IMG/VR virus record: IMGVR_UViG_2606217109_000004
Strand: one strand, 5' to 3'
From: a virus
Lineage: Duplodnaviria > Heunggongvirae > Uroviricota > Caudoviricetes
DNA: 37,894 bases
The notes beneath the pieces are model-generated. The model saw only the letters and a program-made list of their open reading frames with translations. It ran no database searches and was not told where the DNA came from. The translations under genes and the position numbers were made by a program. Below, piece by piece: positions 3,384 to 37,630 of the stretch (position 1 is its first letter; every line of letters starts with the position of its first letter).

Positions 3384-3456
3384 CCATCTACATCACTGAG
3401 CTAATAACAGGCCTGCTGGTAATCGCAGGCCTTTTTATTTGGGGGAGAGGGAAGTC

Positions 3457-3897
3457 ATGAAAAAACTAACCTTTGAAATTCGATCTCCAGCACATCAGCA
3501 GAACGCCATTCAAGCTATCCAGCAAATCCTTCCAGACCCAACCAAACCAATCGTAGTAACCATTCAGGAACGCAACCGCAGCTTAGACCAGAATCGAAAG
3601 CTTTGGGCTTGCCTTGGTGACGTCTCTCGTCAGGTTGAATGGCATGGTCGCTGGCTGGATGCAGAAAGCTGGAAGTGCGTTTTTACAGCAGCATTAAAGC
3701 AGCAGGACGTTGTTCCTAACCTTGCCGGGAATGGCTTTGTGGTAATAGGCCAGTCAACCAGCAGGATGCGTGTAAGCGAATTTGCGGAGCTATTAGAGCT
3801 TATACAGGCATTCGGTACAGAGCGTGGCGTTAAGTGGTCAGACGAAGCGCGACTAGCTCTCGAATGGAAAGCGCGATGGGGAGATCGGGCTGCATGA
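3457..3897 (+). CDS. ninB: NinB (Orf-family recombination mediator)
   Basis: Translation MKKLTFEIRSPAHQQNAIQ... matches lambda NinB; start chosen at MKKLT (the six-frame ORF begins 18 nt upstream). Confidence 0.9.
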   Translation: MKKLTFEIRSPAHQQNAIQAIQQILPDPTKPIVVTIQERNRSLDQNRKLWACLGDVSRQVEWHGRWLDAESWKCVFTAALKQQDVVPNLAGNGFVVIGQSTSRMRVSEFAELLELIQAFGTERGVKWSDEARLALEWKARWGDRAA

Positions 3898-4421
3898 CTA
3901 TCAAATCAAATACGCCAGCACACGACAAGGACTGCTGGCAAACGCCGCTTTGGCTTTTTGATGCACTGGATATTGAGTTTGGATTCTGGCTGGATTCGGC
4001 AGCGAGCGACAAAAATGCTCTGTGCGCTCACTGGTTAACTGAGGCCGACGACGCGCTAAATTCTGAGTGGATAAGCCACGGTGCAATCTGGAATAACCCA
4101 CCGTACAGCAATATCAGGCCGTGGGTGGAAAAAGCCGCTGAGCAGTGCATACAACAGCGACAGACGGTAGTGATGCTTGTGCCAGAGGATATGTCTGTCG
4201 GATGGTTCAGCAAGGCTCTGGAGAGTATTGACGAAGTTCGCATCATCACTGATGGACGGATTAATTTTATCGAACCATCGACAGGGCTGGAGAAGAAGGG
4301 AAACAGCAAAGGTTCCATGCTGCTGATTTGGCGACCGTTCATCAGTCCTCGACGGATGTTTACTACCGTATCCAAAGCGGCATTGATGGCGATCGGGCAG
4401 GGCGTCAGGAGGGCTGCATGA
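3894..4421 (+). CDS. Phage-type DNA N6-adenine methyltransferase (Dam-like), no visible partner restriction enzyme
   Basis: ~175-aa ORF with catalytic NPPY motif (IWNNPPYSN) and a CWQTP N-terminal motif typical of phage Dam-family methyltransferases; start overlaps ninB stop and stop overlaps ninE start. Confidence 0.8.
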
Positions 4422-4594
4422 GACGACAGCGGCGAAGTTTCACCGACATCATCTGCGAAAACTGCAAATACCTTCCAACGAAACGCTCCAGAAATAAACG
4501 CAAGCCAATCCCAAAAGAATCTGACGTAAAAACCTTCAACTACACGGCTCACCTGTGGGATATCCGGTGGCTAAGACATCGTGCGAGGAAATGA
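4418..4594 (+). CDS. ninE: NinE
   Basis: Translation [58 protein letters not shown] matches lambda NinE. Confidence 0.8.
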
Positions 4595-6301: not shown

Positions 6302-7384
6302 TTAGAACTGGTAAACCATACCTACAGCAACGATATCATCGGTAGCAACGCCAGATGCTTTCGTGAAATCGCTCTTATCAATCAGGTTGATTTTGTAATC
6401 AACAAAAGTGGACATATTTTTGTTGAAGTAATAGGTTGCACCTACATCAATATATTCAACCAGGTCCTGATCACCCCACGCACCCAAGTCTTTTCCTTTA
6501 GATTGCAGGTAAGCAACGGACGGACGCAGACCGAAGTCGAACTGATATTGTGCAACTACTTCGAAGTTTTGTGCTTTGTTGGCAATATGGTTATTACCAA
6601 AAACAGTCATGTTCTGGGTTTCAGAATAGGTGGTAGCCAGATAGATGTTGTTCGCATCATATTTCAGACCAGCTGCCCATACTTCAGCATTTTGACCAGA
6701 TGCATTCAGGCTGTTGTTACCGTAGATAACCTGATTATTAGTGCGGTCAGATTTAGCATAGGTTGCACCTACACCGAATCCTTCATACTCATAAGTAGTG
6801 GAGAAACCGAAACCATCACCATTAGCTTCAGTTACGTCAGTGCGGTCATTTTTACCCTGATACTGAGCAGCAAAGTTCAGACCATCAACCAGACCAAAGA
6901 AGTCGTTGTTACGATAAGTTGCAACACCAGTGGTGCGACCAGTCATGAACACATCTGTTTGGGTCCAGGTATCGCCACCGAATTCTGGCAGAACGTCAGT
7001 CCACGCACCGATGTCGTATGCTACACCGTAGTTACGGCCGTAATCGATTGAGCCGTAGTCACCGAATTTCAGGCCTGCAAATGCAAGACGGGTTTTGTCT
7101 TTGGAGGAACCTTGAGATTCAGCGCGGTTGCCTTTGAATTCATATTCCCACTGACCGAAACCAGTCAGTTGATCGTTGATTTGGGTTTCACCTTTGAAGC
7201 CAAGACGGGCATAAGTAGTATCACCATCATCTGCATCATTAGAGGAGAAGTAGTGCTTAGCATTAACTTTCCCGTACAGATCCAGCTTGTTACTGTCTTT
7301 ATTATAAATTTCAGCTGCCTGAGCAGACATCGCCATCAGTACTGATGCAGCTACAGCAGAAATTGCCACTGTTAATTTTTTCAT
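6302..7384 (-). CDS. nmpC: Outer-membrane porin NmpC (OmpC/PhoE family), apparently intact
   Basis: Translation [23 protein letters not shown]|AEIYNKD... with signal peptide and C-terminal ...VYQF typical of general porins; start taken at MKKLT (7384). Confidence 0.9.
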
Positions 7385-7811
7385 CGTGAGCCCTTTTTTT
7401 GAACTATTATTAAAAAATGATGTCACTGCGCGATAAATATTCATCTAATCAATGTGATTATTTCAAGATGTAAGTTTTGGTTTCTCATTTGATTTGTGAA
7501 GTAGATCTCTATTTTTATCTGAACTTTTTCTATCGAATCCTATTCATGGCTCTTGGCTGAATAAAAATAAATCTATTAGCCAATTTATATTAATGGCTGT
7601 TATTTATAAGTGCTCTATAATTTGAAGGTTCAATTTAAATCGGCTAAAAATAACGCTGGAAATTATTTGTTGGTTATTTGTTGAGATTTGCTTATGTATT
7701 TGTAGTGGTGTTTTCAATACTCGGTAGCATTCTCGCAAATATCATTTAGTGGTTTACGTACGTAAAAAATTGGTTATGCTGTTAAGAGTGGTTACTTCGT
7801 CACACAGCTTA

Positions 7812-9324: not shown

Positions 9325-9822
9325 ATGAAATCATTAACCCTCTTCAATCAACCAATTCGTATCGGTGAAGATGGCATGATCTGCCTCACTGATATGTGGA
9401 AAGCCAGTGGTAAAAGTGAATCTGAATCGCCTTACCACTACCTGCGAAACAAGCAGACCAAAGAGTTCTTAGCCGAGCTGGAGAAAAACCACGAATCTGT
9501 GGTTTTTACTGAGCGCGGTGTACACGGTGGAACATATGGCGGGAAGTTTGTTGCTTACGATTATGCGGCTTGGTTAAACCCCGGATTTAAATATGCAGCC
9601 TATAAAGTCCTGGATGACTACTTCACCGGAGAACTTCAGCATCGCAACAGCTTAAGTGCACAGCTCAATATGAAGTGTCATGAGTTTGATCAGAAAAAAG
9701 ATATGGCGAGCTTCTGCGGACAAGGGCTGGCGGCATGGCGCTATACGAAGCCAGTGTTGGTCGCTGAGATTAACTCCCTGGCTAACCAGCTGCAGATTAC
9801 GATCCCCGGGCTTCCGGGATGA
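9325..9822 (+). CDS. KilA-N domain protein (putative antirepressor-like or DNA-binding moron)
   Basis: 165-aa ORF whose N-terminal region resembles KilA-N domains (DNA-binding fold); own upstream region after the lysis terminators. Confidence 0.65.
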   Translation: MKSLTLFNQPIRIGEDGMICLTDMWKASGKSESESPYHYLRNKQTKEFLAELEKNHESVVFTERGVHGGTYGGKFVAYDYAAWLNPGFKYAAYKVLDDYFTGELQHRNSLSAQLNMKCHEFDQKKDMASFCGQGLAAWRYTKPVLVAEINSLANQLQITIPGLPG

Positions 9823-26760: not shown

Positions 26761-30162
<3,402 letters not shown>

Positions 30163-30228
30163 ATTTTATAACCCAGAACGGGCGTCAGAAATGACGCCTT
30201 TTTTATTGCAGAAAAGCGAGAGGTAATT

Positions 30229-30828
30229 ATGCGTAAACTTTATGCCGCCATTTTGTCCGCAGCCATTTGTCTGGCCGTATCCGGTGCGCCTGCATGGGCG
30301 TCTGAACATCAGTCCACGCTGAGCGCGGGGTATCTTCATGCCTTGACGAACGTTCCCGGCAGCGATGATCTTAACGGGATTAACGTGAAATACCGTTATG
30401 AGTTTACGGACACACTGGGGCTGGTGACGTCATTCAGCTATGCAGGAGACAAGAATCGCCAGCTTACCCGTTACAGCGATACCCGCTGGCATGAAGATTC
30501 AGTGCGTAACCGCTGGTTCAGCGTGATGGCGGGGCCGTCTGTGCGCGTGAATGAATGGTTCAGCGCGTATGCGATGGCGGGTATGGCTTACAGCCGTGTT
30601 TCGACTTTCTCCGGGAATTATCTCCGCGTAACTGACAACAAGGGGAAAACGCACGACGTGCTGACCGGAAGTGATGACGGTCGCCACAGCAACACGTCTC
30701 TGGCGTGGGGGGCTGGCGTGCAGTTTAACCCGACCGAATCCGTGGCCATTGATATTGCTTATGAAGGCTCCGGCAGTGGTGACTGGCGCACTGACGGTTT
30801 CATCGTGGGTGTCGGTTATAAATTCTGA
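30229..30828 (+). CDS. lom: Lom outer-membrane protein (Ail/Lom family beta-barrel)
   Basis: 199-aa ORF with signal peptide ([24 protein letters not shown]) and C-terminal ...GVGYKF; matches lambda Lom. Confidence 0.9.
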
Positions 30829-30886
30829 TTAGCCAGGTAACACAGTGTTATGACAGCCCGCCGGTTCAGGCGGGCTTTTTTGTGGG

Positions 30887-33800
30887 GTGAATATGGCAGT
30901 AAAGATTTCAGGTGTACTGAAAGACGGCACAGGAAAACCGGTACAGAACTGCACAATCCAGCTGAAAGCAAAACGTAACAGCACCACGGTGGTGGTGAAC
31001 ACGCTGGCCTCAGAAAATCCGGATGAAGCCGGGCGTTACAGCATGGACGTTGAGTACGGGCAGTACAGCGTTATTCTGTTGGTGGAGGGATTCCCGCCGT
31101 CACATGCCGGGACCATCACCGTGTATGAAGATTCCCGACCCGGTACGCTGAATGATTTTCTCGGTGCCATGACGGAGGATGATGCCCGTCCTGAGGCACT
31201 GCGCCGTTTTGAACTGATGGTGGAAGAGGTGGCGCGTAACGCGTCCGCGGTGGCACAGAACACGGCAGCCGCGAAGAAGTCAGCCAGCGATGCCGGCACA
31301 TCAGCCCGTGAGGCGGCAACCCATGCGACTGATGCTGCAGGCTCAGCAAGCGCAGCCAGCACGTCAGCCGGACAGGCCGCGTCGTCGGCTCAGTCAGCAT
31401 CTTCCAGCGCAGGAACGGCATCAACAAAGGCCAGTGAAGCATCGAAAAGTGCTGCTGCTGCAGAGTCCTCAAAAAGCGCGGCAGCTACCAGTGCCGCTGC
31501 GGCGAAAACGTCAGAAACGAATGCGGCAGCGTCACAACAATCAGCAGCCACTTCTGCATCCGCCGCGACCACGAAGGCGTCAGAAGCAGCCACCTCAGCC
31601 CGGGATGCGGCGGCCTCAAAAGAGGCAGCGAAATCATCAGAAACGAACGCATCCTCGAGCGCCAGTAGTGCCGCTTCCTCGGCAACGGCGGCAGGCAATT
31701 CCGCGAAGGCGGCAAAGACGTCTGAGACAAACGCCAGGTCTTCTGAAACGGCAGCGGAACAGAGTGCCTCAGCTGCGGCAGGCTCAAAAACAGCGGCTGC
31801 GTCGTCTGCCAGTGCAGCGTCAACAAGTGCCGGGCAGGCCTCAGCCAGTGCCACCGCCGCCGGAAAATCGGCAGAAAGCGCCGCATCGTCTGCTTCAACA
31901 GCCACAACGAAGGCTGGCGAAGCCACTGAACAGGCCAGCGCAGCAGCGAGGTCTGCTTCCGCAGCGAAGACATCCGAAACGAACGCGAAAGCGTCGGAAA
32001 CCAGCGCAGAATCCTCAAAAACGGCTGCCGCATCGTCAGCCAGTTCGGCGGCGTCATCGGCATCATCGGCGTCTGCTTCAAAAGATGAGGCGACCAGACA
32101 AGCGTCAGCAGCGAAGAGCAGCGCCACGACGGCATCCACGAAGGCGACAGAGGCTGCTGGCAGTGCGACGGCGGCAGCTCAGAGCAAAAGTACGGCGGAA
32201 TCCGCGGCAACGCGCGCCGAGACAGCAGCTAAACGGGCAGAGGATATTGCATCCGCCGTGGCGCTTGAGGATGCAAGTACGACGAAAAAGGGGATAGTAC
32301 AGCTCAGCAGTGCGACCAACAGTACGTCTGAAACGCTGGCGGCAACGCCAAAGGCAGTAAAATCAGCCTATGACAATGCAGAGAAACGTCTGCAGAAAGA
32401 CCAGAACGGCGCTGATATACCCGATAAGGGATGCTTCCTGAACAACATTAACGCGGTCAGTAAAACAGACTTTGCTGATAAGCGTGGTATGCGTTATGTG
32501 CGGGTTAACGCTCCTGCAGGTGCAACATCTGGAAAATATTACCCTGTTGTTGTTATGCGTTCTGCTGGCTCAGTAAGCGAACTGGCATCAAGAGTCATTA
32601 TCACCACGGCAACGCGAACCGCAGGCGATCCGATGAATAACTGCGAGTTTAACGGATTTGTTATGCCTGGTGGCTGGACTGACAGGGGGCGTTATGCTTA
32701 TGGAATGTTCTGGCAATATCAAAACAATGAACGAGCCATTCACTCAATAATGATGAGTAATAAGGGCGATGATTTGCGCTCTGTGTTCTATGTTGATGGC
32801 GCTGCTTTCCCTGTTTTTGCGTTTATTGAAGATGGCCTGTCAATATCCGCACCTGGTGCTGATCTCGTTGTTAATGATACGACCTATAAGTTTGGGGCAA
32901 CAAATCCGGCGACTGAATGTATCGCGGCGGACGTTATCCTTGATTTTAAGAGTGGGCGTGGTTTTTATGAGTCTCATTCGTTAATCGTTAACGATAACTT
33001 GTCGTGCAAAAAACTTTTTGCCACAGACGAAATTGTAGCGCGTGGTGGTAATCAGATTCGAATGATAGGTGGGGAGTATGGGGCATTATGGCGTAATGAT
33101 GGCGCTAAAACTTACCTGCTGCTTACCAATCAAGGTGATGCTTATGGTGGCTGGAATACATTAAGACCGTTTGCTATTGATAACGCAACCGGCGAACTGG
33201 TTATTGGAACCAAACTGTCCGCAAGTCTGAACGGTAATGCATTAACAGCAACAAAGCTGCAAACGCCAAGACGGGTTTCTGGTGTTGAGTTTGATGGTTC
33301 CAAAGATATTACTTTAACCGCCGCGCATGTGGCTGCTTTTGCCAGAAGGGCAACGGATACATATGCCGATGCGGATGGGGGCGTTCCCTGGAATGCCGAA
33401 TCAGGCGCTTATAAGGTCACCCGCTCTGGCGACAGCTATATTCTGGTTAACTTCTATACCGGAGTCGGAAGTTGCCGGACCTTGCAGATGAAGGCGCATT
33501 ACAGAAATGGTGGTCTGTTCTACCGTTCTTCAAGAGACGGTTATGGTTTTGAGGAAGACTGGGCAGAAGTTTATACCTCGAAAAATCTTCCACCAGAAAG
33601 CTACCCAGTCGGTGCACCAATCCCGTGGCCATCAGATACCGTTCCGTCTGGTTATGCCCTGATGCAGGGGCAGACTTTTGACAAATCTGCTTACCCGAAA
33701 CTTGCAGTTGCTTATCCGTCAGGCGTGATCCCTGATATGCGTGGCTGGACGATTAAGGGCAAACCTGCCAGTGGTCGGGCCGTATTGTCTCAGGAACAGG

Positions 33801-34291
33801 ACGGCATTAAATCGCATACCCACAGCGCCAGCGCATCCAGTACGGATTTGGGGACGAAAACCACATCGTCGTTTGATTACGGCACTAAATCCACGAATAA
33901 CACTGGTGCGCATACCCATAGTTTAAGTGGCAGCACGAATGCAGCTGGTAATCACAGCCATAGAGATGGCCGTCGATTTAACCCCAGTGTTTTTAAAGAT
34001 ACTTATCAATATGGTTATACAAGCTCAGGTCAAAATACCTGGGGTGTACAAGGCTCAGTAGGTATGTCTACGGGGTGGTTAGCTAATACCAGTACAGATG
34101 GTAATCATAGCCACTCACTGTCCGGCACAGCAGCATCTGCAGGTGCACACGCGCATACTGTCGGTATTGGTGCTCATACGCACTCCGTTGCGATTGGTTC
34201 ACATGGACACACCATCACCGTTAACGCTGCTGGTAACGCGGAAAACACCGTCAAAAACATCGCATTTAACTATATTGTGAGGCTTGCATAA
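30887..34291 (+). CDS. stf: Side tail fibre protein Stf, enlarged mosaic form
   Basis: N-terminus ([29 protein letters not shown]...) and C-terminal His-rich receptor-binding region match lambda Stf; central part is a long Ala/Ser/Thr-rich repeat tract plus a divergent lower-GC domain. Confidence 0.9.
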
Positions 34292-35793: not shown

Positions 35794-36377
35794 CTTTATC
35801 AATGACTTATCTCCCGACTTCCCGCCTTGCTTTTCCTAAACAGAACAATCGTAGAATATTCTTGAAGGGTTAGATCGTCACTGTTTTCTGTTCGATACTG
35901 TGACATTCAGCACTTGATTCGCTATGGATCTGACAGGAAGGTTTTGAGCGAAAATTTGCAGTTATTCAGTCGTTTTCTTATCGGTCACCATTATTCTTTT
36001 AGACATTGATCCTACAAAGCTGCCGCAAAGTTGGTGGTGGGAACTGAAGTTGCGTAGAGAAGGGGTCAATACCCGGAGGCAAACATGGGCTGGCAAAAGT
36101 GTAGCGGTATTAGGCGCAGCTATTTAGCCTAGTTATGTTTTATGAAAACTTGATATCATATAAGTGTCTTACTTATTGGCTGTAAATAAGTTTTTCCTAA
36201 GGAATTGTTTCTTGAGTATCATTTGTAACTGTAACGGAATTTATAATCCTTTGCTTTATTGTTACGGTATTTTTTATCACACCCTATTTTTTATGTGGTT
36301 TTTTATACTGAAGTTTGGCAAAGTGAACTTTATATGCATATACTTCATCCTGGTTTCAGTTAAGTTGGGTGGATGAT

Positions 36378-37121
36378 ATGGCAACTACATGTTCAGTTAT
36401 ATTGATTTTGGAGTCCTTTGATGTTTATTTCGGAAAAGAGAGTGTGTTTCTGGAGAGAGGTTCATCTGTACTTGTCGACTCTAGCTCTAGAGATTTTTTC
36501 CTGACATATCCTGAAAGAGTGATAGTGGCGGATTTTGGCGCTGAGTTTATTAGTCGCTATTTGAAAGCTAATAACTTAAGGGATATTTCTGATTGTAGGG
36601 AATATCCATCTTATTTAAAAATAAACTTTGCTGACTTCAGTTTAATTAAAGGATTAATTAGTTGGGCTAATCACTGTGCTGAATACATAGAAATTTTTGA
36701 TGAGTCTATTGCTTTTACATGTCTCTCTGCATTTTCTTCTGAAAAACAATTTGGAGTATTTCTGTTTGAATGTTTGAAAAGCACAGGGGCTAAAGTTAAA
36801 ACGATTATTCATACGGATTTATCTGCACCATGGCGTCTTAAGGATATATCATCAAGATTATATCTCAGCGAAAGTTTACTAAAGAGGAAATTGAAAGAAG
36901 AGGGGGTATCATTCAGTAAGATCATACTTGATGAGAGGATGCAAATGGCTGAATATTTACTCAGCACTCGTTGTTATCCTATTAGTAAAGTAGCTAAGGT
37001 CTGTGGTTATGCCAGTGTCTCATACTTTACTTATGTATTTAGACGTTATTTTGGTGTTTCTCCAAGTCAATACTCTCAGAGCAGTTCAGAAAGTAAAATT
37101 CTTACTCACCAGGGAATCTGA
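36378..37121 (+). CDS. AraC/XylS-family transcriptional regulator (AppY/YdeO/GadX-like subgroup), AT-rich acquired gene
   Basis: 247-aa ORF with C-terminal double-HTH AraC signature (...SKVAKVCGYASVSYFTYVFRRYFGVSPSQY); GGTGGA ribosome-binding site before ATG at 36378; GC well below the phage genes. Confidence 0.8.
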   Translation: MATTCSVILILESFDVYFGKESVFLERGSSVLVDSSSRDFFLTYPERVIVADFGAEFISRYLKANNLRDISDCREYPSYLKINFADFSLIKGLISWANHCAEYIEIFDESIAFTCLSAFSSEKQFGVFLFECLKSTGAKVKTIIHTDLSAPWRLKDISSRLYLSESLLKRKLKEEGVSFSKIILDERMQMAEYLLSTRCYPISKVAKVCGYASVSYFTYVFRRYFGVSPSQYSQSSSESKILTHQGI

Positions 37122-37630
37122 TCATTGTTCTTGCCCCCTTATTTCCAGACAGGGGGTGTATCTTAAGTTAACGTTACCCGCTGACGTCGATATTCTCGCG
37201 GAGAGCGATAACCCAGCGCACTGTGCGGATGGTTTTCATTGTAATGTTCGATCGCCACTGCAAGATTATGCAATGCCGTTCTTACATTCGGTTTCGGCAT
37301 GAACGCGGTGTAGTCTTCCTTCATCGTTTTCACGAACCTTTCTGCCATTCCATTACTCTGAGGACTGCTGATTGCCGTTGTGCAGGGCTCCAGATTCAAC
37401 TCTCTGGCGAACTGCCATGTTTCATGCGCTCTATACGCTGAACCGTTATCTGTCAGCCACTGGATGGACTGTTCCGGTACTTTATCGCCAAAGCGTTTTT
37501 CTATCGCTCCTAACATGACATCCTGCACTGTCGCTTTATCGTAACCTCCCGTGCTTGCGGCCCAGTCTATGGCTTCACGATCGCAACAGTCCAGGGCGAA
37601 CGTAACACGCAGTTTTGAATCGCCACGGGT
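37122..37630 (-). mobile_element. IS3-family (IS2-like) element fragment: terminal inverted repeat plus 3' part of the orfB transposase; 5' part missing
   Basis: Minus-strand frame open from about 37630 to stop at 37163 encodes ...[38 protein letters not shown]...WLTDNGSAY...[11 protein letters not shown]...[19 protein letters not shown] (second D and E of the DDE triad); IS2-like end TTGCCCCCTTATTTCCAGACA at 37128-37150. Confidence 0.7.

Follow-up and report, generated by a model that had tools for sequence, protein, structure and literature searches.

An orphan Dam-type N6-adenine methyltransferase gene in the nin region of a lambda-like prophage: a known lambdoid-phage enzyme most likely directed at GATC

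The window, i.e. the whole stretch of 37,894 nucleotides of caudoviricete DNA that was analysed, carries a phage methyltransferase gene, here called dam, in a typical lambdoid setting. Read along the plus strand, the order is IS30, a truncated cII, O, P, ren, a terminator, ninB, dam, ninE, ninX, a DUF1364 remnant, rusA, ylcG and Q (QuuD-type). The dam reading frame comprises 175 codons (175 aa) plus the stop, and it is joined to both of its neighbours by the tetranucleotide ATGA: the dam ATG (3894-3896) overlaps the ninB stop TGA (3895-3897) within ATGA at 3894-3897, and the dam stop TGA (4419-4421) overlaps the ninE ATG (4418-4420) within ATGA at 4418-4421. The Shine-Dalgarno sequence AGGAGG at 4407-4412 is located 5 nt before the ATG of ninE. 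A methyltransferase with an NPPY motif, placed between ninB and ninE and sharing start and stop codons with both, had already been proposed in the preliminary description of this DNA. This proposal is borne out by the coordinates (Table 1), with NPPY at residues 68-71, and by the matches of the two neighbours to PF05772 and PF05322.

Two competing reading frames were considered and rejected. An upstream GTG start for dam at 3834 (195 aa) would add 20 residues beyond the Pfam model and overlap ninB, and all annotated orthologues use the ATG. An antisense reading frame of 174 aa (4028-4552, minus strand), which runs across most of dam and ninE, has no family match; its sub-threshold Tat match has an E-value of 0.024, and we regard it as a shadow ORF, probably without a coding function.

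Table 1. Location of dam, its neighbours and associated sequence features in the window
Feature	Position	Strand	Basis or remark
Terminator of the lambda tR2 type, intrinsic, between ren and ninB	3409..3442	+	8-pair stem (6 GC), then TTTTATTT
ninB (orf), recombination mediator gene, upstream neighbour of dam	3457..3897	+	PF05772, E 9e-55
Upstream junction GGGCTGCATGA, ninB stop and dam start (ATGA)	3887..3897	+	same 11-mer ends lambda ninB
dam, CDS of phage Dam, orphan N6-adenine DNA methyltransferase (PF05869 / TIGR01712)	3894..4421	+	ORF, profile matches, identity to relatives
DCWQTP, codons D13-P18, N-terminal motif X-like segment	3930..3947	+	conserved residues
LDSAAS, codons L33-S38, motif I-like, putative AdoMet-binding segment with invariant D34	3990..4007	+	D34 invariant in both alignments
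NPPY, catalytic motif IV, codons N68-P69-P70-Y71	4095..4106	+	invariant in both family alignments
Downstream junction GGGCTGCATGA, dam stop and ninE start (ATGA)	4411..4421	+	direct repeat of upstream junction
ninE, downstream neighbour of dam	4418..4594	+	PF05322, E 4.2e-43

The assignment of the protein to a family is unambiguous at the level of curated profiles. It matches PF05869 'DNA N-6-adenine-methyltransferase (Dam)' with an E-value of 1.8e-64 (216.9 bits at a cutoff of 28.1, profile positions 1-167 of 169) and the NCBIfam equivalog TIGR01712 'phage N-6-adenine-methyltransferase' with an E-value of 3.3e-79 (264.2 bits at a cutoff of 97.05, profile positions 1-165 of 165). Its best PHROG is PHROG 111 'DNA methyltransferase', and the best PADLOC models are those of orphan methyltransferases ('oMTase'). 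PF05869 was the sole match in the Pfam scan, which detected neither the D12 class PF02086, comprising the Dam proteins of E. coli and T4 and DpnM, nor N6_N4_Mtase, N6_Mtase or MT-A70. Of the Pfam families N6_Mtase and Dam, which the preliminary description had named for a profile assignment, the protein matches Dam, in the form of PF05869, but not N6_Mtase. The term 'Dam-like' needs a distinction: it is appropriate for the reported target site GATC, but the protein does not belong to the alpha-class D12 family of E. coli Dam. The alpha-class enzymes of PF02086, i.e. DpnM and the Dam proteins of E. coli and T4, nevertheless resemble the phage Dam: the reported target is N6 of adenine in GATC, the catalytic motif is (D/N)PPY, and the fold is that of class I AdoMet methyltransferases.

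The residues that characterize the family are completely retained. The window Dam retains all 16 columns that are invariant among eight diverse phage homologues (30-43% identity; the phages include those of Proteus, Vibrio, T1-like Shigella, Lactococcus and Gordonia) and all 44 columns that are invariant among 40 enterobacterial homologues. The eight phage homologues have D13, W15, T17 and P18 as invariant residues; in the alignment of 40 sequences this applies to T17, P18, D34 and N68-P69-P70-Y71 and nearly so to D13 and W15. The segments DxWxTP, LD-AAS with D34, NPPY and GR..F are all intact. The preliminary description had left room for inactivating substitutions in the catalytic motif; with every invariant family residue kept in both alignments, no such substitution is present. 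The LDSAAS segment presumably takes part in AdoMet binding, and by analogy with gamma-class enzymes the DCWQTP segment might correspond to motif X.

Sequence searches of the PDB, either with the single protein or with a profile of eight sequences, revealed no solved relative and only chance matches with E-values of at least 0.16, including a 'CNPPYS' stretch in Mediator Med31, which is a coincidence. An AlphaFold2 model of the window Dam, built from the alignment of 40 sequences, is of moderate confidence (pLDDT 75.9, pTM 0.77), and confidence is low at residues 30-70. The figures recorded beside this model are 7.5 for PCIF1, 7.3 for M.TaqI, 7.2 for both M.BseCI and CamA, 7.0 for Type I HsdM, 6.6 for MmeI, 5.9 for E. 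coli Dam, 5.4 for DpnM and 5.1 for T4 Dam. The predicted core of the phage Dam is most similar to that of gamma-class N6-adenine enzymes, represented by M.TaqI and also by M.BseCI, CamA and type I HsdM.

The dam gene of the window is already known. It is routinely annotated by NCBI PGAP as "phage N-6-adenine-methyltransferase", and the characterisation of an enzyme with 99% identity to its product dates from 2001. On the amino acid level, the window Dam is 100% identical to the methyltransferase of phage mEp043, 99% identical to HK97 gp62 and identical in 173 of 175 positions (99%) to the Dam protein of VT2-Sakai (M.EcoVT2Dam, BAA94133). The substitutions I60V and I112V, both conservative and situated in non-invariant columns, are the sole differences from the latter. 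The VT2-Sakai record names the orthologue 'dam' and lists it as similar to 933W L0094, HP1 Orf13 and T1 M.T1. M.EcoVT2Dam and its orthologues (HK97 gp62, 933W L0094, the dam products of Phi24B and SfI, and the methyltransferases of mEp043 and mEp213) resemble the window Dam in their length of 175 aa, in being encoded between ninB and ninE, in the ATGA overlaps and in family membership, with 99-100% amino acid identity. The gene itself shows no difference beyond such substitutions; as for the prophage that carries it in the window, this is lambda-like (Nu1/A terminase and lambda-type tail) and has an IS30 copy in cII. A more distant relative is the T1-type Dam (M.EcoT1Dam in phage T1), here represented by the 'putative Dam methylase' of the T1-like Shigella phage Shfl1. 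It shares 33% identity with the window Dam as well as the elements DxWxTP, LD-AAS, NPPY and GR..F, but it is longer (237 aa), being extended at the N-terminus and carrying an insertion further inside, and is encoded by a virulent siphovirus, not in a nin region.

At a nucleotide identity of more than 95%, dam occurs in 244 phage records, including those of SfI, mEp043, mEp213, HK97, VT2-Sakai, Min27 and many Stx1 and Stx2 phages. Among 5426 complete genomes of E. coli, 1566 (approximately 29%) contain the gene at this level of identity, with up to five copies per genome. The copies in E. coli are nearly always annotated as 'phage N-6-adenine-methyltransferase' and flanked by NinB and NinE.

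The borders of the gene are formed by an 11-mer, GGGCTGCATGA, which is present at both junctions and gives NinB and Dam the same ending, R-A-A-stop. In lambda, ninB closes with GGGCTGCATGA before ninC (675-685 in the lambda segment compared), and the ninC/ninD junction carries GCTGCATGA, which closes ninC (1546-1554 in the lambda segment compared). The gene that follows dam is ninC in phage Oslo and in E. coli 3CM, and other genes are found elsewhere. The junction looks like a short conserved boundary at which nin cassettes are exchanged, and the arrangement of dam is in line with the mosaic exchange of nin genes that is known to take place at such sites. An 'empty-site' query, in which ninB was fused to ninE so as to detect phages without dam, gave no clean junction among the matches listed; those at the top were all composed of two pieces and still contained dam.

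The operon context gives an indication of when the gene would be expressed. The terminator between ren and ninB (3409-3432, or 3409-3442 as in Table 1), which we take to be lambda tR2, precedes dam, and no sigma-70-like promoter site was found on the plus strand between 2300 and 5160. Since dam is located behind a tR2-type terminator and there is no promoter-like site upstream, it should be one of the delayed-early genes of the pR operon, the transcription of which depends on N. It has the features of a nin-region gene: it lies between the replication genes plus tR2 on one side and Q on the other, on the same strand, tightly packed and with ATGA overlaps. Such overlaps also occur in the same operon at O/P, P/ren and rusA/ylcG, and they have been described as typical of the nin regions of lambdoid phages in general (PMC8022706). 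The previously suggested co-translation of dam with early genes can therefore be upheld, as the coupling to ninB and ninE by ATGA overlaps is real, but it is generic to nin regions. Indirect support for induction-linked transcription comes from the dam gene of the Stx phage Phi24B (CM2), the product of which is 100% identical to that of VT2-Sakai and 99% identical to HK97 gp62 (PMC3342100). CM2 is one of the four CMAT genes with lytic-cycle-linked expression as determined by qPCR, and its level changed significantly on induction (PMC3342100). In view of the terminator and of the Phi24B data, dam is unlikely to be expressed from a quiescent prophage.

The IS30-family element at the left end (1-1214; transposase at 1-1152 on the minus strand, with HTH_38 and rve domains, 383 aa) has integrated within the 5' end of a lambda-type cII gene. 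The remnant of cII (1221-1466) has lost approximately its first 16 codons to IS30, and the window starts inside the IS element. In the complete genome of E. coli STLEFF_47, IS30 is present at the same cII site together with IS2, and cro, cI and N are still found upstream. As it is situated between pR and the O-P-nin operon, IS30 may exert a polar effect that reduces or abolishes the expression of dam, and the prophage may be defective.

With regard to the target site, Dam-like proteins are encoded by several phages including VT-2 (PMC7556043). One study (PMC6602927), with reference to Radlinska & Bujnicki 2001 (Acta Microbiol Pol 50:161), counts M.EcoVT2Dam among the orphan methyltransferases and states that it is 'known to target 5'-GATC-3'', and papers citing that work describe the enzyme, which is 99% identical to the window Dam, as cloned and characterised. 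On the basis of this identity, the adenine in GATC is most likely the target of the window Dam as well. In E. coli, approximately 99.9% of the GATC sites are already methylated by the host Dam, and Dam homologues cannot be distinguished from the host enzyme in SMRT methylomes (PMC6602927). The lack of an additional m6A motif in a methylome, which had been put forward as evidence against the phage enzyme, is therefore not informative about its activity, because the motif is that of the host Dam. For methylome work in general, this means that the activity of the phage Dam is invisible against that of the host, both being directed at GATC.

In our view, the reading frame is very probably the standard 'Dam' of lambdoid phages, a minimal stand-alone AdoMet-dependent enzyme which most likely methylates the adenine in GATC, is orthologous to M.EcoVT2Dam and HK97 gp62, is encoded by an optional cassette of the nin region and is expressed in the delayed-early phase. 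Its likely role would be to top up GATC methylation during lytic growth. The virion DNA of lambda and P22 is under-methylated by the host Dam, possibly since replication outruns modification (PMC8022706). In this reading, dam would be transcribed together with the other delayed-early genes of the pR operon only once N allows transcription to pass tR2, and its translation would be coupled to that of ninB and ninE via the ATGA overlaps, so that the enzyme would be made during lytic growth or induction and not in the quiescent prophage. It could then plausibly complete GATC methylation on the rapidly replicating phage DNA, which is insufficiently methylated by the host Dam. The genomes of the progeny would be packaged fully methylated, which might guard them in the next host from methylation-sensitive restriction enzymes cutting at GATC and perhaps from nicking by MutH. 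One observation counts against this top-up role: the window as a whole has moderately fewer GATC sites than expected, 99 compared to 144 +/- 11 (approximately 30% depletion), with at least 99 sites in all 100 dinucleotide-preserving shuffles, and such a depletion is not predicted by the model. In the 'Lula' paper, dam appears as a host genotype only, and phage methylases are not dealt with.

It has also been suggested that orphan methyltransferases of this kind alter host gene regulation when expressed from a prophage. The corresponding alternative, that a resident prophage makes the enzyme as an epigenetic regulator of the host chromosome or as a supplement to the host Dam that stabilises lysogeny, can draw on the detection of the Phi24B dam product in lysogen cultures, for which the authors speculated about such a supplement (PMC3342100), and on the requirement of host Dam for stable 933W lysogeny, as reported by Murphy et al. 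2008 according to PMC3342100. However, the qPCR data of that study show lytic-cycle-linked expression of Phi24B CM2, attributable to spontaneously induced cells (PMC3342100), the tR2-type terminator stands upstream of dam without a promoter-like site, and the host Dam already methylates nearly all copies of the motif (PMC6602927). The suggestion of host regulation from the prophage is thus disfavoured, and we regard this alternative as very unlikely. It is still somewhat less probable that the window Dam is inactive or has a relaxed or otherwise different specificity. The specificity of methyltransferases can shift with small changes, as a general point, and the prophage adenine methyltransferases M.EcoGI and M.EcoGII are non-specific (PMC6602927); in addition, phage Dam proteins of the PF05869 type have no recognisable target-recognition domain. 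Against this stand the two substitutions outside invariant columns as the only separation from M.EcoVT2Dam (there is none from the mEp043 enzyme), the intact reading frame with full-length matches to both curated profiles, and the fact that over 1500 genomes retain the allele with a nucleotide identity above 95%.

The least probable of the alternatives, and an extremely improbable one, is that dam represents the modification half of a restriction-modification (R-M) or other defence system with the nuclease partner located elsewhere in the prophage. Complete R-M systems do exist in some Stx prophages, for instance the PstI-like EcoGIII (PMC6602927), and in phage phi419 an HNH endonuclease gene adjoins the homologue of dam. 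However, dam is flanked by the genes for NinB and NinE both in the window and in hundreds of other phages and prophages, and this orphan layout in the window and its relatives is not that of a type II R-M system. Moreover, dam forms a single-gene cassette, the downstream neighbour of which varies (ninE, ninC or others). No restriction endonuclease domain was detected in the neighbouring or the other non-structural ORFs of the window that were tested, which included those for the IS30 transposase, O, P, the KilA-N/ORF11CD3 protein, DUF1398, lysozyme, the porin, Nu1, the AraC regulator and the IS3-type fragment, and the annotation of two near-identical prophages contains no restriction partner either. 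Together with the preference for orphan-methyltransferase models in PADLOC, this agrees with the initial impression that dam has no visible restriction partner.

Beside the preferred reading of dam as a lytic-phase GATC methylase, there are family-wide questions which are not specific to this locus, namely why the lambdoid phages of Dam-positive hosts keep a GATC methylase of their own and how 175 residues without a recognition domain read the site. It is conceivable, although unlikely, that Dam proteins of the PF05869 type, lacking a recognition domain, read GATC by an unusual mechanism, e.g. by means of a conserved beta-hairpin at about residues 121-146 or by dimerisation, and/or that their selective value lies not in anti-restriction but, for instance, in evading a host defence that senses methylation or in controlling the stability of the phage or lysogen. 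This would apply to the family as a whole and not to the window in particular.

Some observations concern other parts of the prophage. Between Q and the lysis genes there is a full-length gene for a general porin of the OmpC/NmpC type (6302-7444, minus strand; Porin_1, E 3.7e-153), a moron of the DLP12 nmpC / PA-2 lc type. The prophage of strain CE0021a is otherwise 98-99% identical, but the segment 9178-10064 of the window does not align to it, and a GIY-YIG nuclease gene takes that place there; the segment, which lies downstream of the lysis genes, appears to have been exchanged as an accessory cassette. It contains an ORF (9325-9822, plus strand) with KilA-N and ORF11CD3 domains and a weak match to the PADLOC model PDC-S22 (E 1.2e-8). 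The encoded protein was considered as a cryptic R-M partner of dam and rejected, since this PADLOC match is short and no nuclease domain is present. The right end of the window, past the gene for tail-fibre assembly, carries a gene for an AraC-family regulator (36369-37121, plus strand) and an IS3-type integrase-core fragment (37163-37528, minus strand). In strain CE0021a the right-end sequence is followed by ybhB and bioA, and the prophage is therefore located at the lambda attachment region. The window itself resembles a contig from a draft assembly, delimited by copies of IS elements. Finally, the region from the C-terminus of the tail-tip protein J to the side tail fibres (29223-34094) is only 91-94% identical to the CE0021a prophage, in patches with gaps, compared to 98-99% elsewhere, and this divergence is the usual host-range mosaic.
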